Positions 22,151-43,198 of a DNA stretch of 64,000 bases are shown piece after piece; the stretch's first letter is position 1; each line of letters begins with the position of its first letter. The DNA comes from Balanoglossus misakiensis (taxonomy: Eukaryota > Animalia > Hemichordata). The notes under the pieces were generated by a model, which saw nothing but the letters and a program-made list of their open reading frames with translations, was not told the origin of the DNA and searched no databases. The translations under genes and the position numbers were made by a program. The DNA lies in the NCBI GenBank assembly GCA_040954595.2, contig CM082577.2, forward strand, positions 16,685,903-16,749,902, read 5' to 3'.

Positions 22151-23894
22151 TGAGCATGCTTCAAAGATATTGATCTAACACCTAACTCTCTGGCATTGAC
22201 TTCCATTATTGTAATAGAGTGATGCAGCTGTTGGCATTTAGTCGCCTCCATGGGCTCCGCCATGTAATAGAAATCTTGTAATAAAATAATCATGACAAAA
22301 TGTAAGTGATACTCAATCTCGCATAACTAAAAGTGTCAATGATCTATCACTATCATGCTCCTTTACTCTTGCATTCAAATGATATTCCCTTTCACTATCA
22401 TCTCTTTTGTAGTATTCCATGTTCAGTCAATGAATCCTTTAAAACAAGACTTGATATAAACTGAGTGTTCGTTTTGTTTTTATTGCAAGTTAATAAAAAG
22501 GTATAAAGTTGCCAGGTAAAATAACAAGAAGTTCCAAAGAAACTTACATTCAGTGGATCCTGCGTTAGATTTGCAGCCAGCAGCATGCATCCCTCTGCAA
22601 TGTGGTTGGGTGTGTACTGCTGGCGTATGTCCATCGAGAGCAGCGTTATGTCTGCCAGATTCTACAACAAAATGAAAAATTAATCATTATCAAGACATGT
22701 ATACAGACAATTATGCCAACCTACTGACACCTAAGACAGAAAATAAGATTTTAAAAAAATGATGTTGTTGGAAGTTAACAAAGAAAATGATTATGATAGT
22801 AAACTACAGTTAAAAAGCTCAAGTTTAGATAAATCTTACTATTTTGACACAAACATAAAGTATGGTATGTATACTTTTCAAGATTGCTTGTTTTATTTTG
22901 ACTAACTTTATTAATAAGTGATGTTTTACTTGTTAATCATCTGTCACATCACATCAGATTTCAATCCAAATGTCTTACTTGCGCAACTTCTCTGGTTTCG
23001 GGTTTTATTTGTGGATACAATTCTCATAAACACCCAAGGAAGGTTGTCACTGGAACTGTTGATAATTTGAAATCTAATAATTTCATTATCGACAGTTTCA
23101 TTTTGCAAACATCCCTTAGGGTAAATACATCTGCAGTGTATTCAGCAAATGTGGCAGCTTCATATACCTGCAGTTGTTTGCTGTTATTGCATAAAAGAAA
23201 ATACCTTGGCATTATATGAAAATATGTGCATACATTATTGTACACAAAAGGCAGGCATTGATTTGTCTGGTGGAGTACTTCACCTTGGCCAATCCACTAT
23301 GGGCGTGTCCCCTGCCCCATTTTCACTGTTTCAGAGGGTCAGGAACAACTATTTTGGTGAGATTTTTGTCTACTTACTAATGAAGATAGTCACCTATGTA
23401 GACTCTGTAATGCATGTACAAAGGGTGCTGAGCTATGGCAAGTTACAAAATAAGCTATCTGTGGATTTCAAATCATTGATTTAGTTGGTATTTTATTTTT
23501 GTTGTAGTAATTTAACTGTTTAGGTCATAGAAAAAGACCGAATGTTGATGATTTAAGATGAAACTCATCATCGCCTAACTGTCAAGGTACACAATCTTAC
23601 AGAATTTACGCAACAAAACCAAAAAACCCAATTAATGAAAGTAAATCACTACAGACTGATGCCTTACCTAGCAGTAAATAGGCTGGCCGCAGCAACCAAT
23701 TGTTTAAATTCTACATGGAACGCCCGGCACCTTGTGATAAAGCTGTCGAAATACCACACAGCTGTGTGTACCGTGTCAATGTCAAAATTGAGTTCCGCTG
23801 ACACCGTGTACATCCAGTCGATGCATATAGCTCTATGATAATTGTCCCTCGGTGTCAGTTGAGGGCTCATACTGTACCACACTGGCACACGTTC
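22151..23894 (-). pseudogene. Divergent cyclin (A/B-like cyclin box), spliced; exons ~23668-23894, 22979-23180, 22548-22661, 22151-22277
   Basis: HRAICIDWMYTVSAEL...DTVHTAVWYFDSFI...QLVAAASLFTA/SK..FAEYTADVFTLRDVCKMKLSIMKLLDFKL..NLADITLL..QYTPNHIAEGCMLLA, with GT-AG boundaries. In-frame stop at 23024. Confidence 0.75.
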
Positions 23895-24021
23895 CTGGTG
23901 GAAGAAACAATACCAGTTACACACCATAAATCTTTGTAAACAGTTAAATCCCTTCTAGAGAAAACCCCCACAATCACAATGGCATGTTGGGTAACGTCCT
24001 GAAAGACCCCTAAAGTTCAAG

Positions 24022-25615
24022 TAGTCCTGTTTCATAAGTCAGGTCCATGACATATGTACCGACATCTGTGATTGGTCCATCTGGTAATCTTAGGTCCACT
24101 TGTGGCACGCTGATTGGAGGGACCTTATGTGTTAGGTCTTATCATTATGTATTATTCACTAGACCTTGTAGGTTAGGTCTTATTACTATGTATTATTCAC
24201 TTTACAGCTCCCTGATTGGTTAATGTGTAGGTCTGGTCCTCCAGTGTTCACTGCCTCATTATGCAGGACCTTGTAGGTTAGGTCTTATTACTATGTATTA
24301 TTCACTTTACAGCTCCCTGATTGGTTAATGTGTAGGTCTGGTCCTCCAGTGTTCACTGCCTCATTATGCAGGACCTTGTAGGTTAGGTCTTATTAATATG
24401 TATTTATTCAATTTTCAGCTCCCTGATTGGTTAGTGTGTAGGTCTCCAGTTTTCACTGCCTCGTTATGCAAAGTCTTTTGTACTTTCTGAATACAGTTGT
24501 CGTATTCTGTCTGCCATGCTGCCTGCGCGTTGTCGAAGCTCGATCCCAGTGTATAAAGAAAGGCACTCATATAATGATGGGATTTCACATTTTCCTTCAC
24601 ACTATTCATGGCATTTTATGTGATACTGTGAACTAGATACTCGAAATAAATATTGCCAGGAGAATTTGTTTATTTTATTTCCAGTGGCGGTTTGTTGAAA
24701 TGGGTTAGTGTTTTGTTACGTAATGCCTTTCAGCGCATCACTTCGTGTAACATCTGGCTGAATACGAAGTGTGTGCTATTCATTCGAGCAAACCAAAAAT
24801 ATCTTACAATAGAAATGTTTAGAATAGCATTGCATTTCTTTGGGATACCTCATTAGTTGCTTTACAGGTATGATTACTTTTATTGTACTTCTTTCACGAA
24901 GCTGCACAGTCATAGTTCTATTTTTATGAAAACAATATACGAATGTATAAACGGACAACGTGCTCCACAACATCTTCGTCAAAACAAATTTACTTTAAAA
25001 TAGTAATAACAACAATAATAAAATTGATGATGAGAAGTAGGAGGGTGATTAAAAAAATATACAACTTAGCTAAAATGCTTAGATGAGTTAATCAGATTTT
25101 CAAAGTCCACCTAAAAGATCATTTAATCTTTCCAGGGTGCGGTTTATGTTGGAGATAGTATCAGTCAGGCTATTTCTCAGAAAATCAATGAACGATCTGC
25201 GGACACCCCGAATAATGTGTTACCACAACGCTAGCCAGGAAGCACATGGGACATTTCACAATGAGGCAATGAACACTAAGGGGACCAGACTGACACATTA
25301 ACCAATCAGGGAGCTGTATGGTGAATAAATACATATTAATAAGACCTAACCTACAAGGTCCTGCATAATGAGGCAGTGAACACTGGAGGACCAGACCTAC
25401 ACATTAACCAATCAGGGAGCTGTAACGTGAATAATGCATAGTAATAAGACCTAACCTACAAGGTCTGGTGAATAATACATAGTAATAAGACCTAACACAT
25501 AAGGTCCCTCCAATCAGCGAGCCGCAAGTGGACCTTAGAGAAGCGGATAAACCAATCAGAACATGTAATACGTGTGCATAGGACCTGTGATGTAGGTCAT
25601 TTTGAAACAGGACTA
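24022..25615. mobile_element. Foldback non-autonomous DNA transposon with TAG..CTA (Academ-like) ends and long TIRs built of 105-bp units
   Basis: TAGTCCTGTTTCA ... TGAAACAGGACTA; 24022-24460 is inverted at ~25280-25615; units start at 24162, 24267, 24372. No clean TSD. Confidence 0.75.
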
Positions 25616-26222
25616 GTCAAAGCTTGAATATTTCAAATGCAGTCCAACCCCAAAACCATTCCGCAAGCTACTAAAGTGTAACTAACACATGGAGTCTCAA
25701 AACATAACACCTTCACGGTGGTAATCAGTGGCCTAACCCACATTCGATAACCATTAAGCTGTGTTATTTATTTTATTACACCAAACATTCACACAACATA
25801 CAGGACAAATATCGCACAGTCAGAATTTATATTACCACTACAGTTTAATGGCCAAACATGAAACTGAATTCCATTATGAACATGTTTTGTATTTCATAAA
25901 ACATGTAACATACACTTTAATAAAGAACAATTCTCAACACCAATGAAAACATACTTGTCATTCAATTTGTGCCCACTTATCATTTAATCTGTTACCAACA
26001 ATAAACGCACTGGGCATATACTATTTAGAGGTTATAAACGGCTAGCGAGGGTATTTGGTTGCGGATATAAGACCTCTCAGGTGAAAATGAGCATATTTGG
26101 CGGGAAATCATTATTATTATTTCACCCAAATATGCTAATGGTGGGCAAAGCTGTGTCAGTCCGATTCAAGCTCACGCACAGAGATGACCGCTACATCTGT
26201 GGCACCTAAATTCGTACATATT

Positions 26223-27201
26223 CTATTTTGACGAGTAGTAATTGCTTGTGTAAACATACACATTGCCTTGGAAAGTACAGTTGTTAAATAGATTTGATGT
26301 GGAAACGGAGTTTGAGTGAATACTCTCACGTGTGGACATACTTCTCTGGTCGCATTGTGTGTGAGCAACCATGACCGGTGCCAAAGCTGGAGTCACGACG
26401 GCCTGAACTGGAGCACTTTCGGTAGGGTTTTCTGATGCATCTATCGTTGACATTAAAATATCACTGCATTGCCGTTTCTGCTGGTTGGAACTGTCGCGAC
26501 AATAACTTCTGATGCTCCCTTCATTACGATGACCGCTGAGGTTCTTAATTATCCGAGTCGGGACCCCCGCATCATTCAGCGACTTAATCGTAGTTGCTCG
26601 CACACAGTGGTTTGTATAAACAACGCTTTTTCATTACCTCTCCCAATGAATTGTGACCCAGGGGGCAATTAACGTACCAAATACTGTGATCGTGGGAGAA
26701 ATTGGAAACGGGGCGCTGAAAAAAGGCACTGCATTTGGGATTTAATTTAGATATGTACTTCAAAATAGCCAAAACGGGACACAGAGGAGACCCCGTTCTA
26801 TACATGCGTTTCTCGGACTCGAAATTATCCTTAAGATCCCCGGGGGTGATTTTTTGTCGCTTCAAAATAGGCCAAAGTTATATACTCCCTTCCTTTCGTC
26901 ATCTTGCTTCAAAACAAAACTTCCCTTGTGTAGATCCCGAAGACCCTCCCGCCCCTTCTGCAAAAGAAAAATTCGACATAAAACCAAACTAAACGTTGAA
27001 GTGAAACTGGGTTTGAATCGGAGAGTGTTCCGCTGGTAAACATCTTCTTTAGATCCCCCGAACTTATTGGCGTTTTGTGCCGGATCATATCCATCCCTTC
27101 CCATTTCAGACTCTTTATCTTCCCCACAAACACGTTATTGGCGGTTTGAAATTCTCTGTCTCGCAAGATGTTAATGGGGCTGTTGAACGGTACGTTTGTG
27201 A
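26223..27201 (-). pseudogene. Crypton (CryptonA/DUF3504-type) tyrosine recombinase, 5'-truncated at an LTR
   Basis: VWFYVEFFFCRRGREGLR, PLCPV..KYISK, WY.N.PLG.N.L, YTNHCVRATTI..L..AG....SGHRNEGSIRSY; frameshifted. Confidence 0.85.
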
Positions 27202-27619
27202 TGTAGTAAAGTAATACTCGCCATACGGGGGGAAAGTACTACTCGCGGTTGCACCGACCGTGTATATACTACCTACACAAAGCGGTCGATGCCTATATTA
27301 ACTATTACTAAATACTTAACAACTGTCTTAAACGCTATATATAAAGGTGAGACAGAACTATAAGTGAAAGCTTATCAGTAGCAAGGATATTACTTATGTC
27401 TTGATATAGTTCAGGTACAATTCGGTCTGGTTGGTCTTCAGCTCGTCCAAACGGCGTGCTTTCCCCAGGTCCGCCCACACTGCTGTCGGCCTCATCCATT
27501 GGTGCTGCTCCTGGCAGTCAGATCTCCGTGCTCCGCCTTCCACAGTCATGGCTGGCTGTCGCCCTGGGCAACCGACTCCGGCTGCCAGTCATCCGGGGTC
27601 CAAATGTAATTCCACTACA
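27202..27619 (-). repeat. 3' LTR of the truncated TatD-type Gypsy (copy 2)
   Basis: TGTAGT...ACTACA inverted termini, adjacent polypurine tract on minus (27620-27640), abrupt junction with the Crypton ORF. No partner LTR in the window. Confidence 0.75.
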
Positions 27620-27883
27620 CTCGTCCTTCTTTTCTTTTTTGGGGAGATCCTCCCTGGGGCTATATGTCGGGTAATGGGAAGCCTGAAGCGGTGGGGTTCC
27701 CTGGAAACGTTCGTCGGGCTGGTCCTGAAAATAAAACGATCTTGGGTGGCCTGCGGAATACTCTCTGATATTAGATTCAAGCCTGGGTGGCCGGATTGAG
27801 TTTTTTGTTATTTGACATGCATCTCCTCCGCCAGTGACGGATTCCACACTCTTGGCAGCTCGCCCCTCGCTGTTCATGTCATC

Positions 27884-29299
27884 TTAGATCCTGTACAGAC
27901 GGCGGGCGTTCTCGGCCGTCTGCGCCAGCAGCTGTCGAGTGGATGTTCCACGCAGCCTCGCCATCTCCAGTGCCACGTCTCCCAGGAAGGCTGGGGTGTT
28001 CATTCGTTGTGTCTCCCACACACGTCCGCCGGGTGATTTCGTTTCCACCAGGATTCGGTCTTCCGGGATGGCCTGCATCGCCTCTATCTGACGTTTGTCG
28101 AACTGGCGGACGGCCGCCGAAAACCCAAAATAGGTGTCCGGAAAATACCGCCGCCAGTCCCCCACGGTTTCCATGCACCCTCTAAAATCCCGGAGATGGA
28201 TTTGCTGGCGTTCATCGCAATGACGGGTTATAGTGAGCAGAGTCCAGGCTGCCGTGTGCCTGTCGTACTTATCAGCGGAGGTTCCCCGGGCGGTGACTAC
28301 CACCGGCTTCCTTCCCGGGTTCATGCAGAGCAGATCTGCAAATACTCTGTCCTGGGCTTCCCAGGTGGAGGGGTCTTCGGTTCTCTCCAGGCCGATGTCC
28401 CCAAGTGCGGCCACGTCCGGGTGCCGCAAAAGTTCCCCGACGGTCTGGCGCTGGTCACTGGTCAGATAAGGTGCCACTCGGGGGTTTATGCCGATGGCCA
28501 TTGGAAATCCTTCTTCGGCTCGGAAAACACTCGCAGACCCCCCGAGGAGTCGTATGCGGTAATCGGGAGGAACACCAACATCGTAGTCAGTGAGGTCATT
28601 TATGGTGGTGGGCGCGTCTTCCACCCTGCACTCCTCCGCGCACGCTTGAGGATGGAAACACGCATCGAAGCCCCCAGGCATTGGTGGGTCCCGCGCTACT
28701 GCTTCCGCCCTCGTCCTTTCTGGTTGCTGTGTCCAGGTTGATGATTGTCTCCGGTGAGGTCGGATTTCCCGGAACTCTTCCTGGCGAGATTGGGACACCC
28801 ACCTTAGCAGTATGCTCAGGACGCGCCAGTGGATGAGGATCGCTGGTGTGGTGGGGGAGCTCAGCCGGAACTTGTTCGGCACCTCCCATCCCTGGACAAT
28901 GCACAGGCGTTTCATCATCACCATAGACTCTGGTGAACACAAGGATTCCGAAGGGATCCGTTCAGGTCCGCCCCTGCGGATAAAGAGGTCTAGCAGGTCA
29001 GGTATTTCCTTTCCGGGACCACACAGCCAGTAAGTAAGCTTCCCTAACGCCTCCGCCACATCCCGCTCGCGGAAAACTTCCGGCTTCTCGATAAAAGGAA
29101 CTGGAAGGTGGCACTGAAAGACGTGCTTCTTCAGCTTGCGCGTGGACATCTGGCATCCCGGGAATGGACACGGAGAAGGGCCTGATGAGTAGTGTGGACC
29201 AGGGGGTGGGGGCTCCTTCGGGTCGGCCTGGCGCTCCTCCAGCGGCGTTCTGTTTGTTTGGGCGGTTCCGGCGTCGGATACCGGATAGGTGATCGACAT
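27884..29299 (-). CDS. C2H2 finger + unknown domain + TatD-fold protein with substituted active site
   Basis: 471-aa ORF: CPFPGC..LKKHVFQCH, PTTPAILIHWRVL, then DACFHP, GINP, LGDIGLE, VVTAR, LRDF, ILVETKSP, TAENARRLY. Confidence 0.85.
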   Translation of the reverse strand: MSITYPVSDAGTAQTNRTPLEERQADPKEPPPPGPHYSSGPSPCPFPGCQMSTRKLKKHVFQCHLPVPFIEKPEVFRERDVAEALGKLTYWLCGPGKEIPDLLDLFIRRGGPERIPSESLCSPESMVMMKRLCIVQGWEVPNKFRLSSPTTPAILIHWRVLSILLRWVSQSRQEEFREIRPHRRQSSTWTQQPERTRAEAVARDPPMPGGFDACFHPQACAEECRVEDAPTTINDLTDYDVGVPPDYRIRLLGGSASVFRAEEGFPMAIGINPRVAPYLTSDQRQTVGELLRHPDVAALGDIGLERTEDPSTWEAQDRVFADLLCMNPGRKPVVVTARGTSADKYDRHTAAWTLLTITRHCDERQQIHLRDFRGCMETVGDWRRYFPDTYFGFSAAVRQFDKRQIEAMQAIPEDRILVETKSPGGRVWETQRMNTPAFLGDVALEMARLRGTSTRQLLAQTAENARRLYRI

Positions 29300-29736
29300 C
29301 TGGGGCTGAGGTCTCCCCAGCGCGAATGGGATGGTCGTTCACGAGGCGACCGGGTTGGGGATCTGGACCTAGTAGGGGGGCTGAGAAATTGTGGGAGATC
29401 CCAGGGGATATCGTATTCCCCCGCCTCCAGCGTCTCCTCCAGCGCTAAAGGCCGGATCAGTGGCTGCAGTGGCATAGCTATGTCGGATGGTGCAGGCAGG
29501 TGAGCTTTGACCTTCTCCTTTCCGTAGACCCGTATGGCCTCCTCCCGTGCGATGGACATCCACCCTATGTCTCCTATGACGGCGGCTACTTGGAAATGCT
29601 CACGGAGCATCACAAACATGGTGTCTTCGTCCACGCCGAGTTGCCTCAGTCGGGGGATGACACTGATGGGGTCCAATAATTTCCCCCGGCCGCAGCGATA
29701 ACGAATATCCTCTACTTGGCGTTGTCTAGAATCCAT
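29131..29736 (-). CDS. ORF-A of the 3' cassette (unknown domain plus Arg/Ser/Pro-rich linker)
   Basis: VEDIR..GKLLDPISVI and GDIGWMSIAREEA resemble IEDVR..RRLLGPREVI and GNWGWVFTIQREA of 36267-36908. Confidence 0.6.
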   Translation of the reverse strand: MDSRQRQVEDIRYRCGRGKLLDPISVIPRLRQLGVDEDTMFVMLREHFQVAAVIGDIGWMSIAREEAIRVYGKEKVKAHLPAPSDIAMPLQPLIRPLALEETLEAGEYDIPWDLPQFLSPPTRSRSPTRSPRERPSHSRWGDLSPRCRSPIRYPTPEPPKQTERRWRSARPTRRSPHPLVHTTHQALLRVHSRDARCPRAS

Positions 29737-29997
29737 TCTGGGGGCAAAAAGAAAAGAAAGAAAATTAACGGTTAGTGGGTCCTCGTCTGTAACGAGTCAT
29801 AGCCCTACCTGATGGCAATTTCCCCTTTTCCCTGTGTTCCCTTGCTCGTCGATTCCCTCCCCCACGCAGTTCGGACAGTGAAAGGGGTCAGTCGATTTCA
29901 ATAAAAACGTACTTTACCTTACTTAACATCTCTACCTTAGCTGGTAAATAGAGGGTTTAGAAATGATGAACGAATTTTGAAAAAAAATCAACGTTAC

Positions 29998-31436
29998 CTA
30001 TAATTGCTTCAACCGTCTCCTCGTCAAGTTTAGGCTTTGGTGTGACGTCATTCAAACAATTTGCTACTGTACCTGATAAAGTGTGGCTGGCCATCATAGT
30101 TCTGTCAAACACTGATATCAAGTCCATTGTGTATTTTCTTGCATCAGCAGTGTTACACCTTGATAGTCTTTGCATGGACACTTTGGTTTTCCCAAAGGCT
30201 ATGAACTGAAATTGAGAGAAAAACAATATTCTAACCTTAAACAGAGCTCTTCATAAAATTATGAAATTATATAACATAACAAATCAAGGCTATTTAAGAA
30301 ATGCTCAGAACTCCTTTCAAAGAAAATTCATTCTTCTGATGATTTGTAGCTATACAAACATGTTACTTTAGAGTAAAACAGTCTTAAGTCATCATGTGTG
30401 CATAGGTGTATACGTGTATGAGCAGTGTCCACCATTGTCATTATTCACAAATGATTTTTTAAATGGATATGAATTCATGAATGTAATATTTTTCACAATG
30501 TTCTCACTGCAATTCTGAATCTGAACATAAGACTAAAATGTAGTGTGAAAATACTGCAAATAGAAACAGAACATTGAAATCTATTTCCTTTTATCATAGG
30601 CAGTAACATGTTTTTCATTTCCTGTAAATATAAGGTCATATTTTTGTATTCTGACAAAATTCAAATCGGTACCAAATCAATTCTTTCCATCTTTGTGTTT
30701 TCAAATCATCATCATTCTTCACTGGCACTGTTTTGGTAAAAAGGAGAACTGCTTAGTAATAATTTACCCACTGTATCACTCTGGACAGAGCAGGAGAAAT
30801 TTGTATATCATCAAGCTGACATGAAAGTGCTAGTCAACCGAGTGAAATCTGTTAGTTACATGCCGAAAAACTGCACTAAGTTTTCACTTCGCTGTATCAA
30901 ATGGTCCCTGTATATTTATTCACTAAGTAACCTGCCTACACATTTATCAAATCATCAAAATGAGAAATTCTTGTGAAAAGCAACTTAATCAGAACATGGT
31001 ATGAAGAAATGCGAACATTACCTACCTCTCTTGAGGTTTTGTGGATAATGACATCTTCGATTTCTTCTGACTTCTTCTTCGGCGATGTAGTTTTATAGGA
31101 CTTATGTCACTCAGTACCTCCTTTCTTGAATTTTTCTGTTCATCAATAGTAGGCAGCACATGACGTAACCCTAAAGATGGTCAGAAATAACATGTTATGG
31201 TGTTGTTATTTGTAGTGATATGCTGATGGTGTGTTGAACATGCATAAACAGTATGACCAGCACACTGCCAAGGAAAAAAGTTCTATTTCTGTTCAATACA
31301 TATTTTGTCACATCCCGAAAACGTGTCCTTTCTCTTGACATTAACGGATACTTACACTTCAAGGTTGCAATTGTGTCCTGCAAAGCTTTGGTTCTTCGAT
31401 GAACTTCTCTATTTTCTTTCTTTAAATCTTCTACTT
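29998..31436 (-). pseudogene. BEN-domain gene fragment (exon 29998-30205 plus upstream coiled-coil exons)
   Basis: KYTMDLISVFDRTMMASHTLSGT....KPKLDEETVEAII resembles a BEN domain and has AG/GT boundaries; upstream VEDLKKENREVHRRTKALQD. Confidence 0.6.
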
Positions 31437-31832
31437 CATTACCACCGGCCCTTTCCACGGTGGGCATAGCTTCCTACATTTCCCACGATGAGTGGCAGTG
31501 TCAAGTAGATAGACGCAATCTCCTACTTCATATGAATGAACATTGATACGCAGGTCATAGTCTTTTTTTTCATTTTCTCCTGTGTCGTCCACAGGTGTGT
31601 ACAAGCAACACTGTGTGCTTGTTGGACAGCCTCCCCCATGTCGCGTACATACTCTTCTGGAGTCTGGCCGTCTGTCTTCTCAGGAGATCCATATATCATG
31701 TCAGCTGGCTGGTTGACCTCTCGTCCCAACATAATACGGTTTGGGGTGAAACCAGTGCTTCTATTCACTGAAGAGCATAGGGCTTCTGCGATCTGTGGAA
31801 GATGTTTGTCCTACTCGCGCTGGTTTTTACCT
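31437..31832 (-). pseudogene. Gypsy integrase C-terminal fragment (same clade)
   Basis: NRSTGFTPNRIMLGREVNQPAD...GDCVYLLDTATHRGKCRKLCPPWKGP closely matches the integrase at 36817-38490. Confidence 0.85.
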
Positions 31833-32843: not shown

Positions 32844-33789
32844 TCATGTAATGGTATCTATGGAAGCAGGGTACTGGGCACATCCTAACTTTGCATCCTC
32901 TACAGAAGTACTTTGTGTCTTTCCTGTTGATGTGTACCTGGCATTTTGATTTGTTTCTGCCAAATCTGGAGACTGCTGCAAATTCCTATCGAACCTGATG
33001 TCATTAATTGGGGCTGTGGGTTTTCTCCCTGGCCTTTTCACGAAAGAACGACCACCGATCAGTTCTTCACACAGCTTACCACGAAACTTTCGTTGAGTGA
33101 TTTTATCCTGAGGGTTTGCTTTCTTGAAAAGAATGAATGCATTCACTACAGACACCTCAAGTAGATACCAAAATATCTGTAGGTACCAGGTAAGTCCCTT
33201 CATATGACGCTTGTAGCTGCCAAGACGTTGGTCCGCCAAATCAACGCGTCCCATGTACTTATTATATCTGCCAATTACTTGGGGTCGAGGTAACTCCTGC
33301 AGTTCCCATGTGCCCCTGACCTTAACTGCCCTTGTTACAGGATCACTCTCTGCTCTGACTGGTAATGTGGTGAGAGCGCTGACTATCCTAGAGTCCTTCC
33401 AACACACAGCTTTCTGCCTGCCTTTCTGCCAAAAGATAAATTCCCCACGACTTCCACGAGTAAGACTTTTCATGACAGGACTTTTCGACTTCATTTCGAT
33501 GGGGAGGCCCTTTCGATTTTGTCTAACTGTACCACAAGCCAACATTTTCTTCTCCTCCAATTTATCAAACAAAGCAGGAGATGTGTAGTAGTTGTCACAA
33601 TACAATTCATATCCTTTGTTGTGATATGGAATTGTTAGTTTCATGACAACATTCTTGGTAACTGACGCTTCAGGAGACTGCAAGTGTGATTCTCGGCCCT
33701 GATAAACCTTCAAATTCAGGATATAGCCAGTGGTAGATTCTGCTACGTTGAACACCTTGATACCCCATTTCGTGGGTTTGTTTTTGATG
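32844..33789 (-). pseudogene. piggyBac (PGBD4-like) transposase, C-terminal half
   Basis: YIKNKPTKWGIKVF, LYCDNYYTS, CGTVRQNRKG, YNKYMGRVDLADQ; frameshifted C-terminal Cys-rich domain. Confidence 0.9.
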
Positions 33790-33793
33790 TACT

Positions 33794-33995
33794 TGTTGTA
33801 AAAGCCGATTGCTTACCTTATGGTAAAATAAAGGATACTGAGTTGTAGGTTGGATAGGTAATTTCGTAGTAGTTTCTAGGAGCTCAGGTTGAAGCGTGTT
33901 GCATGTTGCTGCACTCGTAATAGAAAAGGTCGAACTATTTCCGCCCAAGGGTTGAGTGGGGTCAGTGACGTCATGACAGATGTAGCATCACAACA
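33794..33995 (-). repeat. 3' LTR (PPT TATGGTGGGGAAGAG at 33996-34010)
   Basis: Direct repeat of 43199-43389 with about 6 substitutions and one 11-bp indel. Confidence 0.95.
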
Positions 33996-34365
33996 CTCTT
34001 CCCCACCATATTTTTGAAGGGCGTCGTCTTCTTCCCCCCAAACACCGGGGGATAATACAACATTGAACACAACAATAACAAAAATCGAAAAATAGAAGGT
34101 CCAGCTGGGCTTTACTGGGTATGCCCCACTGGTCGGCCGGTTTGTTTCTTTTGTTCCCCTTTTAGATAAAAATTCCCTCCAGCTGGGCTTTATAAGATAT
34201 GCCCCACTGGTCCATTTGCTGGATTTTTTCCTTTTGTTGAATATCAATTCCCTCTAGATACAAATTTCCCAGGTGGTTCCCGTCCTTCCCCTATATTTGG
34301 CCTTTCTGGTAAAACCCTGGTACCCCCATCCCAAACAGTAGGTTCCAAAATCCCCCTGCCTTCCT

Positions 34366-36372
34366 TTAAAACAGGAATAGGCATCTAGTGTTGTTGGCCG
34401 CGACCTCCAGCAACTCTTCTGCCGCAACCCCTCGCACCTGGGCTGCTTCCCGAGCCACCTCACCCAGAAACACAGGGGAGTTGAATCGCTGACTCCCCCG
34501 CAGGGCTAGATGTGGGGCGTCCGTCTCCAACAGGATTCGGTCCTCGGGAACTTCCCTCAGCGCTTGGGCTTGTATTCTGTCGAAGCAGGCCACGCTGGCA
34601 GAAAAGCTGAAATAGCAATTCTGGAAGGCCTGGGTCCATCTATTTAGGGTGCGTCGGTCCCCCCCCCCCCCCCCGAAGTTGTGCAGCTGGATTGGTTGGG
34701 TTGCAGGGCAGGTTTCAGACACCAGCATCAGGGCCAGGGCATGTACATCGCTGGCGTGTGGATCTCTCCTAGCGCCCCTGATGTGTAGTACGATGGGTTT
34801 GTCTTCGGGTGCTACTTCCAACAGGCATTGGAGGGCTTCCTCCTGCTGGCCCCATTCATGGACTGGTGCGGTCCTGTCCAGGCCTATCTCGCCCATAGCC
34901 GCTACCAAAGGATGGGTTACCAATCCCTTGATCTGCTGCAACAGCTCCTCTGTCATTTTCTTGGCCTTTTTGGGGTGAAGCCCGACCGCAATTTTCCACC
35001 CCGGCTCCCTTAGCAGGATCTTTGGATATTCTTCGGGGTCACAATAAATCTCCACACCTCCCACCACTTCCACTGGCACTTCTGGCTCTCGCCCTGGCGA
35101 CAATTGTAACAGTTCATGGGAAGTGGTGGCTCCTTCACTTCGGGGAGCCTGGGCTCTCATGCCGTCCGGGTGAAAATGAGCGTCTATGGCCTGGGGTAAT
35201 CCCCCGGCTGGTGACGCCACACGGGGTCGGCTAACGTCTGGACTGCCGGCGCTTGCTTGGGACATTTTTCCTCTGGGCCACTTCTTGATAGTCTCCCGTT
35301 CCTCCGGCGACAGGTCTCCAAGGAGCGTGAGGAGAACCCTCCAGTGAATCAGCACCGCTGGTGTGTTGGGCGGTGACAACCGTATCTTTTGGGGTACTTC
35401 CCATCCCATTCGGTGGCACACTCGTCTCATAATTTCTTCATCTTCCGGGAGAATTTTGGATGTCGTCGGAAAACGTCCGAGGCCATGTGTCAGGAAGTAT
35501 TGGAAAAGGGCGACGATGGGCTGTTCCTTCCTCACAAGAAGCTGGGTCAAACCCCCTAGTAAGCCGACGATTGCGTCCAGATCGGCTTTGCGAATCTCTC
35601 CCCGCATGTAGGATGGTAAGTCGCGCTTGTATACGTGCTCCTTCAGCCACTTGGAAGAATGTCCGCAATCCGGTATGGGGCAAGATGATTCTTTCCCTGG
35701 AATCGGACAGTAGGATGTTTTCCCGCGGGGTTGTGGTCGTGGTGCTGCTGGGGCTTCCGCTGCTGGAGGCTTTCCCACTGTCCCCGAAAGGCCAGATGGC
35801 CTCTCTGGGCTTGCTTTCTTGGGTGGCCTCCAAGGCTCATTCTCTGATGGCCTTTTCTCCGGTCTCTCCACCGATGCCGACACTCGGGAGTGGGAGCCTG
35901 CGGATCTCCAGCGCCGGCTCGAACTGCTTTTCCCCTTCCTGCGCTTGGTGGTGGCTGTCGTGGACGCAGGGTGGCTCGGGCTTGGTGTATACCCCGCCGG
36001 TCTTAAGATTAACCGTCTGGGCGGTTCTTCCGTTTCCTCCGTTTCTTCCATCGCCTCGGCAGCCTGCGGATGCCCCGGTTCAGCACCTGGGCTTTCCGTA
36101 GTTTGCCGAAACTCGCTGCAGGTGATGGTACGGATGATGAGCCTTTGTGCCCCGACACTGAGATTCTCGCCGAGCTCGTATGGCGATATGGGCATCTCCT
36201 CCACCTCCCTCTCTTCCGATCGGCTCACGACCATGGAGACTTCTCTCCTATAAGGACCTTCCCCGCTCAGTTGAGCCCTGTCCCCGCTCCAGAGAACCTG
36301 GGGAAACCCCTGGTCCCGCAGAGCTGGGCGGTGGACCCGATGAGCTGGGCGAACTCCACCCTCCGGATGCAA
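34366..36372 (-). CDS. Low-complexity region + C2H2-like finger + unknown domain + TatD-family metal-dependent nuclease
   Basis: IDAHFH, VGLHP, MGEIGLD, PIVLHIR, LHNF, ILLETDAP, AANNTRCLF form the full TatD motif set. True start codon uncertain. Confidence 0.9.
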   Translation of the reverse strand: MHPEGGVRPAHRVHRPALRDQGFPQVLWSGDRAQLSGEGPYRREVSMVVSRSEEREVEEMPISPYELGENLSVGAQRLIIRTITCSEFRQTTESPGAEPGHPQAAEAMEETEETEEPPRRLILRPAGYTPSPSHPASTTATTKRRKGKSSSSRRWRSAGSHSRVSASVERPEKRPSENEPWRPPKKASPERPSGLSGTVGKPPAAEAPAAPRPQPRGKTSYCPIPGKESSCPIPDCGHSSKWLKEHVYKRDLPSYMRGEIRKADLDAIVGLLGGLTQLLVRKEQPIVALFQYFLTHGLGRFPTTSKILPEDEEIMRRVCHRMGWEVPQKIRLSPPNTPAVLIHWRVLLTLLGDLSPEERETIKKWPRGKMSQASAGSPDVSRPRVASPAGGLPQAIDAHFHPDGMRAQAPRSEGATTSHELLQLSPGREPEVPVEVVGGVEIYCDPEEYPKILLREPGWKIAVGLHPKKAKKMTEELLQQIKGLVTHPLVAAMGEIGLDRTAPVHEWGQQEEALQCLLEVAPEDKPIVLHIRGARRDPHASDVHALALMLVSETCPATQPIQLHNFGGGGGDRRTLNRWTQAFQNCYFSFSASVACFDRIQAQALREVPEDRILLETDAPHLALRGSQRFNSPVFLGEVAREAAQVRGVAAEELLEVAANNTRCLFLF

Positions 36373-36908
36373 CTTCCTGGGTTCCGCTGCCGGTTTCCAG
36401 GGTGCGTCGGACGGGTAAGTCTGGTTGCGTCAGTAAGCGGATGTCCCATGTCCCACATACCCCGCTCGGAATATTCCTCCGGTATCGCCATCACCTTCTT
36501 GGGGCGTGGGGGCTGGTGGTCCTTAGCTGGGTTTATGTGCGGCATATTCTGTATGATCCAGGGGATTGGAAACATAACATCCGCTTCCCGTTGGATAGTA
36601 AACACCCACCCCCAGTTTCCCTTGGATTTGGCTACCGCATATTGGTCTAGGAGTGCCTCTTGGGCTTCTCGCTTGGGGGCCATCATGATGCCGTGGATGA
36701 CCTCTCTGGGGCCTAGGAGACGGCGTGCCTGAGTGGCCCGCCGGACATCCTCAATGTTGAGCTTGGGCATGGGTCTTGGCATATTGAATGGGGCTGGGTC
36801 TGCGGACATAAAAATGTTAGGCTTGTTGAGTGCACTGGGGGCAGAAATAGTCCCCCGTGCCTCCCTTTCCTGACTGAATTCCCACACAGGACATATGGAA
36901 CCAGTCAA
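36267..36908 (-). CDS. ORF-A of the 3' cassette, unknown function (likely start MSADP ~36809)
   Basis: Homologous by eye to 29131-29736 and in the same position after integrase. Confidence 0.6.
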   Translation of the reverse strand: MTGSICPVWEFSQEREARGTISAPSALNKPNIFMSADPAPFNMPRPMPKLNIEDVRRATQARRLLGPREVIHGIMMAPKREAQEALLDQYAVAKSKGNWGWVFTIQREADVMFPIPWIIQNMPHINPAKDHQPPRPKKVMAIPEEYSERGMWDMGHPLTDATRLTRPTHPGNRQRNPGSCIRRVEFAQLIGSTAQLCGTRGFPRFSGAGTGLN

Positions 36909-38490
36909 AACACTTGTCGCATTGGATCATTGGGCTGCCATCGTTCGGTCCCCGACAAATGCAGTACTGGTCATTCCCTGGGCTTTCGGTTTCCCCCGTG
37001 TCGTTGGCTATGTTTGCCTGGTGCCTAACGATCCACTGGGGTAAGACCCGATCCCTACATAGTTTGATCCTGTCATGGTGCACAGTCATCTCTGCCCTTT
37101 TCAACCTCACTTTGTACAGGTATGGGGAGAATTTCCCAATGATCACGGCTGGGCCCTTCCAGGGGGGACTTAGCTTGCGACATTTCCCTTTTGTGGTGGC
37201 GGTATCCAAAATGTATACACAATCCCCCACCCCATAAGCTTTGGTGTGTGTTCTCAAATCATAGTCCCTTTTCATTCGTTCCTGGGTGGCCCTTAAGGTA
37301 TTACGGGCGGTTTCATGGGCCTTGCTGATTGCTCTCTCCAATTCCCTAACATACCCCTCGGCCCTTTCCCCTTCATTGGAAAACTCATCAGTGCTGTCTC
37401 TCCCCTGCCCTGTGGTCACCCCAAACACCAGATCTGCTGGCAAGTTAAGTTCCCTTCCCAACATTAAACGGTTTGGTGTGTACCCTGTACTACGATTCAC
37501 TGATGCGCGCATTGCCCCTGCTAGCTGGGGTAGGTGTACATCCCACTCGCGCTGATTTCCAATGAAGCAACGCACTGCGTCCATGAGCGTACGGTTATTT
37601 CGTTCCGCCTGGCCATTCACGGACGGTCTATAGGGGGTCGTTCTGCATTTGTGAATACGCAACAGCTCGCAAATCGCTACAAAAAGTTGGCTTTCGAAAT
37701 TACGCCCCTGGTCGGTAAAGATCTCGAAAGGGTACCCGAAGCGCGCAAAGAATTCATTCACTGCTGCCTGGGCGGTGACCTCCGCTGTTTGTGACGGTAG
37801 TGGGATACACTCCACCCATTTTGAGAACTGATCGACCATCATCAGGACGTATTCGTTCCCCCCTTGTGTCTTGGGGAGGGGCCCGAGAAAGTCCAGATGG
37901 ACTCGCTCCATGGGAGAACCTGCATGGAAACTTTTCATTTCTGCCCTGCCATACCGGTGGGTTTTCTTGTTCTGACTACACTCTGAGCATGTGGCCACAA
38001 AATCCTTCACTTCCTCCTGCATTTTGTACCAGACGTACTTCTGTCTTATTCTGGACAAGGTCCGTTTGACACCTTGATGTCCGGCAGAGGGGATAGTGTG
38101 ATTTAAGTCTATGACCTCCTCTTTCATGTCTCGGGGGACCACAAATAATTTGTGGCCTGAGTCAATTTCCTCCCTCCATAGGACTCCATCAATCACACAG
38201 AACAATTCCCGGTTCACCCAATAATTCTTGGCGGCTGGGCTTGATAGCATAAGTTTCCCTTCTAGGGGTTCTTTCCCTGTCTCTACCCAATATAATAAAT
38301 CGCTAAGGTCTGGGTCTTTTTGTTGCATTTCCCGGAATTCGGCCATGCTTACCCCGACGATAGCGGTGCCCTCCTGCTTTTCACTAGCACGCGTTACTAC
38401 ATATGCTTTGGGCTTCCCCTGTCCTCTATCCCAACCCTGTTCAATATCAATGTGGGATTGAGGGGCTTCCAACCAATTTCCCTCATGCAC
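36817..38490 (-). CDS. Gypsy integrase with C-terminal PHD finger
   Basis: HHCC (H..GH..CSEC), HLDFLGP, TDQGRNF, AERNNR, WKGP, then [29 protein letters not shown]...YFCPQC. Confidence 0.93.
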   Translation of the reverse strand: [557 protein letters not shown]

Positions 38491-38802
38491 ATTTTGGCCC
38501 TCGTATGACTCGCCTGGGTCCCAGGGCCAGGGTGGACAGTCACACCCCTGGGGAATTGGTGCGTCCCGGCCTGGGGATAAGGCTTCCCTCGGCGGAGGTT
38601 CTGCCCCTGGTGTGTCGCTGACCGTCTCCCCCTGCCCTAGCTAAGGGGACCACATCGTCTATCTCATCGATGAAAACACTCCATCTCAAGTGGGCCTTCT
38701 CACAGTAGATACAACCCCCACAAGGAAGGTCTTGGGGGCTTATCCCATGGCTGAAATTGGAACATTGCTTGGGGTCTTGCACCCGTGAGAGTGCGTCGGC
38801 AT

Positions 38803-40335
38803 TTACGGTACATGTTTCTTCCCCTGGCGGTGCTCTACCTTCATGTCATATTGACTAAGCTCTTCAAGCCAACGAGCTAACTGTCCCTGGGGTTCCTTGA
38901 AACTAAGCAGCCAAGTCAAACTGCTGTGGTCTGTTCTTAGTAGGAAACGCTTCCCTACCAAATAATGGCGATACTGCCGGGTAAACCTAATTACGGCAAA
39001 CAGCTCTTGTCTAGTAGTGCAATACCGGCGCTGTTCAGGGGTCATGCTCACGCTGCCATACGCCACTACCCGTTCCCTACCATCCTGCACCTGAATTAAT
39101 TCTGCCCCAAGCGCATGATTTGACGCATCGGTATCTAATATGAATGGGTCTTCATCGTTGGGCAAAGTCAGTACTGGTGGCGACATTAGCGCAGTCTTAA
39201 TTTCTTCGAATGCGCGTTGCTGTTCAGGTCCCCATGCGTATGCCTGTTTCCCTGTGATTGCGTATTGGGGGGCGGCCATTTCTGCAAATCCCCTAATGAA
39301 CGAACGATGGTAATTCGCAAGCCCTAGGAAACTCTCGACTTCCCTTGTCTTTGTGGGACGGGGCCATTCTGCAATCGCGCGGATGGAGTCTGCCTCCAGC
39401 TCGATGGAATTTTGCTTTACCCTGCGCCCAAGGAAAGTCACTTCAGTGCAGATCAATTCGCATTTCCTTGGTTTTAACTTGAGCTGATAGTCACGCATGC
39501 GCTGGAAAACACCGCGCAAGTTCTGTAGATGGTGGTCAAAATCGGTCCCTAGTACCATAATGTCGTCCAAAAATGCGAGGACGACATCCCAGGTCAAACC
39601 CCGCAACACTAAATTCATTACCCGTGAGTAAGTGGCTGGGGCATTGCACAACCCAAAGGGCATTCTAGTTAACTCGAAAAGCCCGTACTTGGTGACAAAT
39701 GCAGTTTTCTTACAATCAGCGCGGTCAACCCTCACCTGCCAATAGGCGGAGTTTGCGTCTAGTTTGGAGAACCAACGGTTTCCGGACAGCGTGTCCATGC
39801 AGTCTTCGATTAACGGAAGAGGGAACACGTCCTTAGCCGTTTGGTTGTTTAACGCGCGGTAGTCTACGCACCAACGCACGCTGCCATCGCGCTTGCGGAC
39901 TAGAACAGGGGCAGATGCCCATTCCGATACGGAGGGCCGAATGACCTTTGCATCAAACATTTTCTTCAAATGCGCTTCTTCCTCGCCTGCGAAACAACGC
40001 GGGGTGCGGCGCATCTTTTGTTTGACGGGTCTCGCGTCCCCAGTGTCAATGCGGTGGCTAAGGGCGGTAAAGTTCCCAAGATCAAACTCATTGGCTGCAA
40101 ACACGTCTTGGTAATCATTCAGCAGCTCTTTGAGTTTGTCTGTCTCCCCCGGACTTAGATTTGTACATGATTTTTGGAACAGGTCCTCTAAATGGCTGGG
40201 TACGTCTGGCTTGTCAGTTTCCCTTTTCCCCAGTGAGGCCTCAACTTTCTGGACAGTGATTTCTTCCGTTGTCCCAGGGGGCCCCACTACCTCGACTTCT
40301 GATGCTGTTGCATACTTTGGGCAACTGTCCCCCAC
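38803..40335 (-). CDS. Gypsy reverse transcriptase / RNase H
   Basis: RWCVDYRALN, MPFGLCNAPAT, FLDD, FLGLANYHR, ILDTDAS, TDHSSL. Confidence 0.95.
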   Translation of the reverse strand: MGDSCPKYATASEVEVVGPPGTTEEITVQKVEASLGKRETDKPDVPSHLEDLFQKSCTNLSPGETDKLKELLNDYQDVFAANEFDLGNFTALSHRIDTGDARPVKQKMRRTPRCFAGEEEAHLKKMFDAKVIRPSVSEWASAPVLVRKRDGSVRWCVDYRALNNQTAKDVFPLPLIEDCMDTLSGNRWFSKLDANSAYWQVRVDRADCKKTAFVTKYGLFELTRMPFGLCNAPATYSRVMNLVLRGLTWDVVLAFLDDIMVLGTDFDHHLQNLRGVFQRMRDYQLKLKPRKCELICTEVTFLGRRVKQNSIELEADSIRAIAEWPRPTKTREVESFLGLANYHRSFIRGFAEMAAPQYAITGKQAYAWGPEQQRAFEEIKTALMSPPVLTLPNDEDPFILDTDASNHALGAELIQVQDGRERVVAYGSVSMTPEQRRYCTTRQELFAVIRFTRQYRHYLVGKRFLLRTDHSSLTWLLSFKEPQGQLARWLEELSQYDMKVEHRQGKKHVP

Positions 40336-41086
40336 AATTGACTGTCCTTGGCACTATCACCCGTAAATTTCCCACTGGCTCGATGATATACTTGGACAAA
40401 GGGCAATCTATCCCACAACGTACCCTTACTACTGAATTTGGGGGAATTCTAGTCTGTTTGGGCAACGTGACCTTTGCCACTTTCTTTTTTGTCCCTTCCC
40501 GACCATAGGTCATGTGTACAACTTCACCCCCAAACCGCAACTGATTTCTTCGCATATCTAGGATCACTCTCCTTGACCGCATAAAGTCTGCCCCTAGCAA
40601 CATGTCATCCCCTATCGGCGCTACATACACGTCCTCTGTGAATTTGGTCTTTCCCAACTTCAGGCGCAAGGGACCTACTTTATGGGCTTTCATTTCCATT
40701 TCCCGCCCTGCAGTTTGCATGATGGTGGTTTTGAGTACTGGGGGGCGGTTCCCAAGACGGCTATAGAGGCGGTCTGAAATGATGGGGACTTCTGCTGCCG
40801 TGTCTACTACTGCCTGTACTTTAATCCCTTCAACTAAAATAGGTACACTATACATAGACCCTGACACTAACTGACATATGGTTATGGGCTGGGTGTCTTC
40901 ACCGCTGGAGGTCTCGTTTGCTGTGGATTCATCAGTGTCCGAATTCGGGGAATCATACTCCTGTTCGTCCACCGACTCCCCCGACGAGCCGTACTGTTCG
41001 TCGGTTCGTGCATCCCTAGGGTGTAGATAGAACCCGTGCCCTTGCAATGTATTGTCAGTGTGGGTATCTAAAGTGGCCTGACACAC
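40241..41086 (-). CDS. Gypsy aspartic protease region
   Basis: AVVDTAAEV and MLLGADFM. Confidence 0.85.
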   Translation of the reverse strand: MCQATLDTHTDNTLQGHGFYLHPRDARTDEQYGSSGESVDEQEYDSPNSDTDESTANETSSGEDTQPITICQLVSGSMYSVPILVEGIKVQAVVDTAAEVPIISDRLYSRLGNRPPVLKTTIMQTAGREMEMKAHKVGPLRLKLGKTKFTEDVYVAPIGDDMLLGADFMRSRRVILDMRRNQLRFGGEVVHMTYGREGTKKKVAKVTLPKQTRIPPNSVVRVRCGIDCPLSKYIIEPVGNLRVIVPRTVNCGGQLPKVCNSIRSRGSGAPWDNGRNHCPES

Positions 41087-41916
41087 TGACCCCCCATTTG
41101 GTCTATGGCTTCTTCCATGGAGGATACACGTTGGTTAGCAACTGAAAGCCCTGCCTCGCGATCGGCGCATCCCTGACAAAACTTCATTATCGCCTGACGG
41201 TCCATAGCGCGCTCCGTCAGTTCAGGGAAAGCGTTTGCCGCGAGGGATAGGAGTCGATCGGCCCATTTTTCGAGTGACTCCCCTTCTTTCTGATGGGACT
41301 GCTGAAATCTCATCTGCACGGTTTCTTGTAGTTCTTGGCGCCCGAAACGCTTTTCAAGCTTACTAATCAGCCGCTGGTAGCTGACATTCCGCTCGCGCCT
41401 GAGTAATGTTGAGTGAAATTCACTGGCGTCGCCGTCTAAGCAAAAACACAAGCAACATTTGCGTTCGCTCTCTGTCCAACCCTGGGCATCCGCGTAGCTG
41501 GTGAATTTATCGAAAAACACGCTCCACTTTCTCTCCCCAGTGTAAACTAACGTTTTGGGCGTATTAAACATCCTAGAGCCGAAGGCGGGCCCTTCCCTAC
41601 CCCCACCTTGCCTCATGCCCGTGAAGGACGTTTCACCATAAGGGTGGCTTGGCTGCACATTCCCATACGTCGGAGTCCAGGTGACATTGGATGGGGCGTA
41701 TGGGCTAGGACTGCTTTCCGCTTGAGAGGGTGGGCCATAGTACGTGGGATAGGGGATCCCCGATACTGGAGGGGCGCCACCACGGTTTTCGGTGGGAAAT
41801 CGCCAATCCCCGCGTTCGTAAGGGCTGGCTGCTGGGAGCGGTGTGGACCCCATCGGATATGGTGGCGGTGGGGTAAAATACCTTGGGAAGTTGTCTGGTG
41901 GATACGGTGGAGACAC
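41068..41916 (-). CDS. Gag (Pro/Tyr-rich region and capsid-like domain)
   Basis: YTGERKWSVFFDKF..GW..L..LDGDA..LEKRFG..F.Q.HQKEGESLEKWADRL. Confidence 0.85.
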   Translation of the reverse strand: MSPPYPPDNFPRYFTPPPPYPMGSTPLPAASPYERGDWRFPTENRGGAPPVSGIPYPTYYGPPSQAESSPSPYAPSNVTWTPTYGNVQPSHPYGETSFTGMRQGGGREGPAFGSRMFNTPKTLVYTGERKWSVFFDKFTSYADAQGWTESERKCCLCFCLDGDASEFHSTLLRRERNVSYQRLISKLEKRFGRQELQETVQMRFQQSHQKEGESLEKWADRLLSLAANAFPELTERAMDRQAIMKFCQGCADREAGLSVANQRVSSMEEAIDQMGGQCVRPL

Positions 41917-42011
41917 CCCAACCTGGTTCCCTGGGTAACGGCTCTGCTCTGTTGTGTGAAAATTATCCCTGTCTCGGGGTGCCCCATAATTTGGTGTTTG
42001 ACCCCTGGGAA

Positions 42012-42677: not shown

Positions 42678-43183
42678 ACTAATAATTAACTACACACTCG
42701 ACACAACACGTAGGATTTACACGAGTGAACTCTTTTATTAACAGAAATAATCACCACACACAAAAACTCACTCCCACACAAAAGAAACTTGAATGCTCGC
42801 TAAAGAAAAGTTCTGCGCATGCGCCGAACGCCGCACCCCAAACACGTTTTTCGTAATGAGGACCGGACCCCTCTAGCAATAGAAAGGGACCCTATTCCGC
42901 CCACGCTGCTTTGGGAAAAAACGCAGAAAATTTGTTACAACCGCCTCCCAAACCCCGGTACCTACCCAGCACCGACTCTAAACTTTCCTCAAAAAATCCC
43001 CGCGGTCCCTGAGAGTTTGCCCAGTGTTTTCCTGCCCCGGCTATCCCCGATTTCCCGTTTTTTCCTAGCCCAGAAAAAAACCCACGTCTCACCCGGACGC
43101 AATCGCTGAATTCCGGCCACAAAAACACCACTCTCCCCCGCTTATCACAGAAAACCCGTTTCCCCGCACAAAGTAAGAACACA

Positions 43184-43197
43184 GGCTCGCAGCGCCA
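43184..43197 (-). promoter_or_regulatory. Primer-binding site TGGCGCTGCGAGC (tRNA-Ser-like)
   Basis: Starts with TGG 1 nt after the 5' LTR; complementary to a tRNA end ...GCUCGCAGCGCCA. tRNA identity is recalled, not searched. Confidence 0.8.
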
Positions 43198-43198
43198 A

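Follow-up and report, generated by a model that had tools for sequence, protein, structure and literature searches.

Long terminal repeat (LTR) retrotransposons of bdelloid rotifers carry enzymatic third open reading frames (ORF3s) that are not env genes, namely a DEDDy 3′–5′ exonuclease and a GDSL esterase (Rodriguez, Kenefick and Arkhipova, 2017; PMC5408684). As far as the account in that paper goes, these elements are the closest described system to the one considered here, and the likeness lies in a captured nuclease-family gene that stands as third ORF in place of env. A literature search that combined TatD with retrotransposon, LTR, Gypsy or transposable element found no paper on TatD as the third gene of an LTR element, and a giant squid paper lists, in its treatment of the Hox region, a TATDN2 gene beside transposon-like genes. 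We have analysed a 64,000-nucleotide stretch of the genome of the hemichordate Balanoglossus misakiensis (contig CM082577.2; hereafter the window), which holds two such genes on its minus strand. Copy 1 stands last among the genes of a complete Gypsy-type LTR retrotransposon. Copy 2, the subject of this report, is an ATG-to-stop frame of 471 codons plus stop (27884–29299, minus strand) whose product joins a zinc finger and a helical domain to an altered TatD barrel. The reading we favour, with moderate confidence, is that copy 2 ORF3 is the third gene of a 5′-truncated, multi-copy Gypsy-type LTR element, and that it likely encodes a non-cutting TatD relative that is kept by purifying selection and is predicted to bind nucleic acid.

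Active site and fold of the copy 2 protein

The residues that matter for TatD catalysis are described for several enzymes. In E. coli TatD, E91, H127, H152, E201 and D203 are metal ligands; E91A, E201A, D203A and H62A lose activity, or in the case of H62A strongly reduce it, and the H64A, H127A and H152A variants are reported there to retain it (PMC4176340). Class II TatDs, which carry an HxH motif, include TATDN2, TATDN3, YcfH and YjjV, and the account of this class describes their histidines as building a two-metal site (PMC10085689).

Copy 2 is recognizable as a member of this family. Pfam TatD_DNase (PF01026), the only Pfam domain detected in copy 2 ORF3, matches residues 267–470 at 80.1 bits (E 2.2e-22; profile positions 57–253 of 253; curated cutoff 27 bits), and copy 1 scores 111.7 bits (E 5.1e-32) with the same profile. 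The two ORF3 proteins align by BLASTP over 450 columns with 33% identity (E 3e-69). The TatD triosephosphate isomerase (TIM) barrel, supported by the Pfam match and by structural matches made with Foldseek, spans residues 205–471 (27887–28687, minus strand). The 471 stop-free codons described in an earlier note on this DNA were found as stated, and the frame extends to 484 codons from stop to stop. In 1000 dinucleotide-preserving shuffles of the GC-rich block 27400–29800, the longest stop-free run averaged 179 codons and reached at most 407, so that 471 codons were attained in 0 of 1000 and a chance open frame is ruled out.

An AlphaFold2 model of copy 2 ORF3, built from 83 aligned sequences, has a mean predicted local distance difference test score (pLDDT) of 88.7, with most of the barrel above 90. 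The top matches in the Protein Data Bank (PDB) are all TatD enzymes, at E 2.6e-12 and weaker: S. aureus TatD (6l25_A, E 2.6e-12, template modelling (TM) score on target 0.76), E. coli TatD (4p5u, 3.4e-12) and YcfH (1yix, 2.5e-11), with 2y1h also among the best and TM-scores on target of 0.72–0.76 for these top matches. A sequence search of solved structures agrees, returning YcfH 1yix at E 8e-9. The structure modelling that the earlier note had called for thus points to a TatD fold that is predicted to be intact in copy 2.

The active site has fared differently from the fold. At the eight catalytic and metal-binding positions copy 1 reads H, H, H, E, H, H, E and D, all intact, and copy 2 reads C214, H216, N272, D301, T336, R370, E419 and K421. 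Aligned to E. coli TatD, H62 corresponds to N272, E91 to D301, H127 to T336, H152 to R370, E201 to E419 and D203 to K421. The HxH motif expected of an active class II enzyme therefore appears as C214-x-H216, with its first histidine replaced, and the catalytic histidine of GxHP (E. coli His62) is Asn272 in the copy 2 sequence GINP. The acidic ligands equivalent to E. coli Glu91, Glu201 and Asp203 have become Asp301, Glu419 and Lys421, a set that departs from that of an active TatD, and both histidine ligands of the LHxR and LHxF motifs (E. coli His127 and His152) are missing, with Thr336 and Arg370 in their place.

The motif pairs that had first drawn attention to this gene (DAHFH/DACFH, GLHP/GINP, GEIGLD/GDIGLE, LHIR/VTAR, LHNF/LRDF and ETDAP/ETKSP, copy 1 before copy 2) all fall in register in the alignment, and the scaffold motifs PEDRIL.ET and N(S/T)P.FLG.VA are retained in copy 2. 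The earlier description of nearly every metal-binding position as changed holds for six of the eight; the second histidine of HxH (H216) and the glutamate of E-T-x (E419), however, are kept.

These losses are concentrated at the active site, as the note had claimed. Conserved columns were defined within the TatD domain on the 64 of 82 aligned relatives in which all eight positions are intact. Among columns conserved in at least 90% of these, copy 2 retains two of eight catalytic positions versus 20 of 23 others (Fisher p 0.0026), and at a threshold of 80% it retains two of eight versus 34 of 39. The three other conserved losses, D218Q, R219A and D305E, flank active-site motifs. A loss that centres on the catalytic residues and spares the scaffold, one of the marks by which we judged a candidate pseudoenzyme, is what the Fisher test finds here.

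Copy 2 also keeps the part of the protein that precedes the barrel. A conserved N-terminal domain (residues 40–180; 28760–29182, minus strand), common to copy 1 and many family proteins, opens with a zinc-finger-like motif of the C2H2 type, C-x4-C-x9-H-x4-H (residues 44–64; 29108–29170, minus strand). In 36 aligned family rows, counting at each column only the rows with a residue there, Cys44 is kept in 28 of 28, Cys49 in 29 of 29, His59 in 29 of 29 and His64 in 29 of 31. The structure model predicts a β-hairpin followed by a helix for the finger, and models the N-terminal domain confidently (pLDDT 92.0). This domain gave no Foldseek match in the PDB at E ≤ 0.001, a best Z of 3.8 and no recognized fold in the VIA wide search, and a best score of 0.87 with no family assigned in the ESM Atlas. 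Copy 2 keeps this N-terminal module whole, a state that fits a protein that still binds something.

On these grounds we regard it as quite probable, judging from sequence, that the copy 2 protein does not cleave nucleic acid, because asparagine stands at the position of the catalytic histidine, three of the four histidines of the site are gone, and an arginine occupies a ligand position.

Sibling copies and probable selection on the altered protein

Copies related to copy 2 were sought in contigs of the source sample, which is probably the sample behind the window assembly, aligned at 80% identity or more; the two runs used, X1 and X2, come from one sample and one study and are not independent. 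Summed contig depth in the unique flanks was approximately 60 in X1 and 29 in X2. Over the repeat block at approximately 27300–29900 it was 270–5200 in X1, with values of 270–630 across the TatD domain and a maximum of 5200 in the N-terminal half. Depth over the copy 2 block is 5- to 85-fold that of the unique flanks and comprises many diverged variants, as expected of a dispersed multi-copy family; a single-copy host gene is ruled out by this repeat-level depth. Unique contigs end at 27255 and resume at 29860, which gives a repeat unit of approximately 2.6 kb with abrupt ends in single-copy DNA.

Depth is also uneven within the unit. At 28556–28667 and 28716–29318 it reaches 1100–5200 in X1 and up to 27000 in X2, versus approximately 100–1000 over the TatD barrel. 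Because these values lie far above those of the barrel, the N-terminal half of ORF3 is therefore common, at 80% identity or more, either to a far more abundant relative or to many 3′-deleted copies.

Over the 817 bases of 27884–28700, 88 contigs in X1 and 39 in X2 cover the TatD region at this identity, and copy 2 differs from its siblings at 128 places, the best-supported 40 of which were analysed by codon. Third positions account for 29 of these 40, first positions for nine and second positions for two (binomial p 4.7e-7 for the third-position excess). Thirty of the changes are synonymous and ten non-synonymous; random single changes in this stretch would be synonymous in 25% of cases, or in 33% if transitions alone are considered. 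Our own rough estimate of the non-synonymous to synonymous rate ratio among siblings is 0.1–0.2. Since the differences are mainly synonymous, they argue for selection at the protein level on the altered TatD and not for decay specific to copy 2. The selection that the earlier note had supposed is to this extent supported. A further mark of a pseudoenzyme, purifying selection after the loss, was accordingly found on one sample and on the best-supported 40 of 128 differences.

Differences at the active-site codons are few. None of the best-supported 40 restores a canonical ligand, and the codons for C214, N272, D301, T336 and R370 show no difference among these 40 of the 128. At His216, CAT is replaced by TAT (Tyr) in 103 of 184 units of sibling depth in X1 and 425 of 791 in X2; at Lys421, AAA is replaced by GAA (Glu) in 220 of 283 and 290 of 418, respectively. 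The family form of the site is thus C-x-(Y/H), N, D, T, R, E, E, and Lys421 is mostly specific to copy 2. The earlier note had named retention of the ligands by sibling copies as one outcome that would refute it. At the canonical positions the best-supported 40 of 128 differences argue against decay confined to copy 2 in this manner, but the change to Lys421 is indeed largely its own.

The sibling residues also provide the main rival to a non-cutting protein, which is that copy 2 and its siblings are still nucleases or hydrolases with a remodelled metal site. In such an enzyme Asp301, Glu419 and Glu421 of the siblings could hold Mg2+ as in a class I TatD, and selection would act on the altered catalysis. 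The limited set of substitutions that inactivate E. coli TatD in the cited work (PMC4176340), the glutamate found at position 421 in most of the sibling depth, and the intact fold with 20 of 23 other conserved positions kept are all in accord with this possibility. Against it, the equivalent of the catalytic His62 is asparagine, Arg370 stands at a ligand position, and the family belongs to class II, in which the histidines described as forming the two-metal site (PMC10085689) have been lost at three of four places. Furthermore, the lysine of copy 2 replaces the aspartate equivalent to TATDN3 D218, for which the same source gives a 30-fold loss of activity on change to alanine, and the motif-adjoining residues D218, R219 and D305 of the copy 2 alignment are changed as well. 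We therefore consider a remodelled enzyme rather unlikely.

A second alternative is neutral decay, in which copy 2 would be an old dead insertion whose open frame and substitutions have arisen without function. Copy 2 is truncated and lacks gag-pol, its Lys421 is not common to most siblings, its branch in the protein tree is long (1.46–1.58 versus a median of 0.62–0.9), and some siblings carry frame-breaking insertions or deletions (indels). This explanation must nevertheless accommodate a 484-codon stop-to-stop frame not approached in the 1000 shuffles, the survival of 20 of 23 non-catalytic conserved positions, the synonymous character of 30 of the 40 best-supported sibling differences, and a confident AlphaFold2 model. 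Decay without function is on this evidence improbable.

Several observations weigh against the reading of copy 2 as a selected, non-cutting binder. Most siblings, with Asp301, Glu419 and Glu421, are acidic at three positions that are essential in E. coli TatD, and by analogy a Mg-dependent, residual or altered activity of the sibling form could survive. The synonymous bias comes from the best-supported 40 of 128 differences, so minority siblings with canonical residues are possible, and around N272 the sibling depth amounts to only about one sibling-equivalent. Part of the copy 2 family is decaying, because some siblings carry indels (at 28538 and 28564–28571) or a 142-nt deletion, and copy 2 itself, truncated and with an atypical Lys421, may be non-functional. 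No relative above 37% identity was found among 1.84 billion representatives. Finally, copy 2 has no gag-pol adjoining, and its assignment to an LTR element is judged from homology and layout.

Dead-looking lineages in the wider family

A HMMER search of the same 1.84 billion representatives returned 1459 proteins at E ≤ 1e-3, of which 376 reached E ≤ 1e-10. The best relative of copy 2 is an uncharacterized protein of Ptychodera flava (P0002 in our library; 37% identity), and word-based protein searches found distant TatDs only, in one case a single match at 31% identity and in another eight matches at 27–32%. No other notable Pfam domain was seen in the 25 family proteins scanned.

The state of the active site was counted in 120 of 151 rows, namely 118 library proteins plus copies 1 and 2. 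A row qualified if it had a residue at each of the seven scored positions and no fewer than 200 residues in the domain, a rule that removed 31 rows for being shorter or gapped. All seven positions are kept in 94 rows, six in ten, five in one, and four or fewer in 15, copy 2 included. Dead-looking proteins, with four or fewer of the seven positions kept, thus make up 14 of the 118 library representatives. They include uncharacterized proteins that bear the source names Ostrea edulis, Batillaria attramentaria and Haliotis cracherodii. Some of the dead clades are old: two of them, one formed by P0130, P0138 and P0119 (50–56% mutual identity) and the other by P0091 and P0134 (58% identity), each have non-canonical residues in common among their own members.

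Two of the dead-looking proteins, P0119 and P0169, are deposited as ‘TatD family hydrolase’ of Candidatus Thiodiazotropha metagenome-assembled genomes (MAGs), on contigs of 1.6 and 7.5 kb. These contigs are probably host DNA that was binned with the symbiont. A scan of genome contigs with P0169, made for the context of another dead clade, yielded nothing beyond one bacterial MAG match at 28%.

In a mixture-model tree of 58 rows, copy 2 groups with copy 1, P0002, P0087 and several dead rows (Shimodaira–Hasegawa-like approximate likelihood ratio test, SH-aLRT, 92; not starred); with its long branch, its exact place is unsure. Constraint of all 15 dead rows to a single clade lowers the log-likelihood by 140, and this topology is rejected by the approximately unbiased (AU) test (p-AU 0.0014). 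The alignment used for the test kept the catalytic columns, which should favour one clade, so the rejection of a single origin is conservative. The notion that all dead-looking TatDs form one clade is thereby ruled out, and the suggestion that the lineage has active and inactive subfamilies finds support both in this result and in the 14 of 118 dead-looking representatives.

If lineages that have lost the catalytic residues are still under selection at the protein level, and have arisen more than once, the service that ORF3 renders its element cannot be only the cleavage of DNA or RNA. A non-cutting ORF3 would serve the element by means of the parts that it has kept, namely the zinc finger, the helical domain and the surface of the barrel. 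One plausible role would be to hold element RNA, cDNA or RNA:DNA intermediates by way of the barrel groove and the zinc-finger domain; another would be to compete with active TatD proteins. A broader and quite speculative proposal, to which we give little credence at present, is that TatD third genes have repeatedly turned from enzyme into a non-catalytic clamp, in which the disabled barrel together with the zinc finger grips RNA:DNA or 3′-end intermediates of the element. Such a clamp would protect these intermediates from nucleases, among them the active TatD of rival elements such as copy 1 within one genome, or would act as a dominant competitor, and the change would be recurrent across several animal phyla.

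Element context and comparison with known systems

Copy 1 provides the complete reference for these genes. It occupies 33794–43389 (minus strand) and contains LTRs, gag-pol, a leader frame and the TatD ORF3 (34366–36372, minus strand; 668 amino acids), in which the eight catalytic and metal positions are intact. Its LTRs are approximately 200 bp long, with segments 95–99% identical and ends TGTTG...CAACA; after the 5′ LTR there is a tRNA-primer-like TGG site, and ahead of the 3′ LTR a polypurine tract. The coding content comprises a helix-hairpin-helix (HhH) frame (42012–42677) that precedes gag, gag itself (PNMA/Retrotrans_gag), protease, reverse transcriptase–RNase H, and an integrase with a PHD finger at its end. 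The element splits a piggyBac transposase gene (DDE_Tnp_1_7; 32847–33812 and 43403–44371) and is bordered by a 4-bp target duplication, AGTA. As an element, copy 1 is both complete and young.

What remains of copy 2 is shorter. A polypurine tract lies 245 nt downstream of the ORF3 stop (27624–27640, minus strand), where we read AAAAAAGAAAAGAAGGA on the minus strand. It is followed by a probable 3′ LTR (27250–27619, minus strand) that begins with TGTAG at 27619. Its other end is placed only roughly, since the boundary of the repeat falls at approximately 27226–27324. We read this region as an LTR because the order of polypurine tract and TGTAG is as in copy 1 and because its depth is at repeat level (609–785 versus approximately 60 in unique flanks, with the unique contig ending at 27255). 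The succession of stop, polypurine tract and TG start is identical in both copies. Copy 2 therefore combines an ORF3 homologous to that of the complete element (the BLASTP match given above) with a polypurine tract and an LTR start.

The remaining hallmarks of an LTR element are missing at copy 2. No direct repeat pair that would supply a second LTR was found around 27250–29875, nor any second copy 2 LTR within the window, and the repeat block contains no gag, reverse transcriptase or integrase; an LTR pair with target-site duplication and gag-pol is thus lacking. The ‘sister element’ of the earlier note must accordingly be cut back to a 3′ part of approximately 2.6 kb (about 27250–29875). We take copy 2 to be 5′-truncated; alternatively, it may belong to a shortened, non-autonomous family. 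A domesticated host gene family, derived from a retroelement TatD and no longer mobile, is improbable: copy 2 has neither pol nor a second LTR next to it within the window and public annotations list relatives as ordinary uncharacterized or TatD-like host proteins, but the depth of 5- to 85-fold that of unique flanks with its many diverged variants, the polypurine tract and LTR-like 3′ end after the stop, and the abrupt ends of the repeat in single-copy DNA all speak against it.

Upstream of ORF3 lies a leader frame (29134–29796, minus strand; 221 codons from stop to stop) that overlaps the ORF3 start in another frame. A homologous leader is present in copy 1 (36267–36908, minus strand), and a conserved part of approximately 80 residues forms the N-terminus of at least ten family proteins that also carry TatD; in copy 2 the match to this N-terminus covers the first 100 or so residues of the frame. 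The offset between leader and ORF3 is identical in both copies, ORF3 being in the −1 frame. This layout suggests recoding or splicing, judged from the frames. A G_GGT_TTC heptamer, a candidate −1 slippery site that might join leader to ORF3, occurs in copy 1 only. Copy 2 siblings carry indels in the leader region, at 29340–29341 and 29410–29413. ORF3 would be translated from a separate message or else reached by recoding out of the leader frame. The true protein may be longer, made by a splice or a frameshift, but our reading of the TatD domain would stand in either case.

Several other features lie near copy 2 in the window, which as a whole is AT-rich eukaryotic DNA with GC-rich islands. An integrase fragment at 31437–31825 (minus strand), frame-shifted and in low-GC DNA, has 67–70% protein identity to the copy 1 integrase. 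It was considered as a part of copy 2 and ruled out by intervening single-copy contigs (29860–30947 and 31012–31366) and by its far lower GC content, and it is probably an older separate remnant. Pieces of a broken Crypton-like tyrosine recombinase (26159–27238, minus strand), with weak matches to the Phage_integrase C-terminus and to DUF3504, adjoin the 3′ end of copy 2. A frame at 29960–30250 (minus strand), in single-copy DNA just upstream of copy 2, has a weak BEN-domain match (E 0.001). Frames at 23027–23954 (minus strand) match Cyclin_N (E 6.7e-10 and 0.009) and are probably exons of a host cyclin gene. A tandem repeat of approximately 105 bp forms short arrays at 24120–24445 and 25282–25434, the second apparently inverted relative to the first.

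Public annotations file proteins of this family as ordinary host genes and even as bacterial genes. Annotators should be aware that many marine invertebrate genes labelled ‘TATDN2-like’ belong to retroelements. Within a single genome, copy 1, with its active form of the site, and the disabled copy 2 family constitute a natural experimental pair.

Copy 2 shares its Pfam family and TIM barrel with the class II TatDs E. coli YcfH (1yix), S. aureus TatD (6l25 and 2gzx), human TATDN3 (2y1h) and TATDN2. The consensus of the retroelement family carries the class II motifs DSHFH, GxHP, GExGLD, LHxR, LHCF and ETDxP. Unlike the cellular class II enzymes, copy 2 lacks six of the eight catalytic and metal residues and is a multi-copy mobile-element gene. 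Its N-terminal extension of approximately 200 residues, formed by the zinc finger and the helical domain, is likewise absent from these cellular enzymes. The ORF3 of copy 1 and its relatives (e.g. P0002, Ptychodera flava XP_070541281) encode the same three-part protein; the leader frame is offset in the same way, and the gene likewise comes after the integrase region. In contrast to copy 2, with which they share only 33–37% identity, copy 1 and P0002 keep all catalytic residues.

Compared with the bdelloid rotifer elements, as these are described in the source cited at the outset (PMC5408684), the captured gene encodes a TatD barrel of the amidohydrolase fold and not a DEDDy nuclease, the hosts are different, and the catalytic residues have been lost in some lineages. 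Captured enzymatic third genes of LTR elements are already known from that account, and a TatD variant with lost catalytic residues adds to them.

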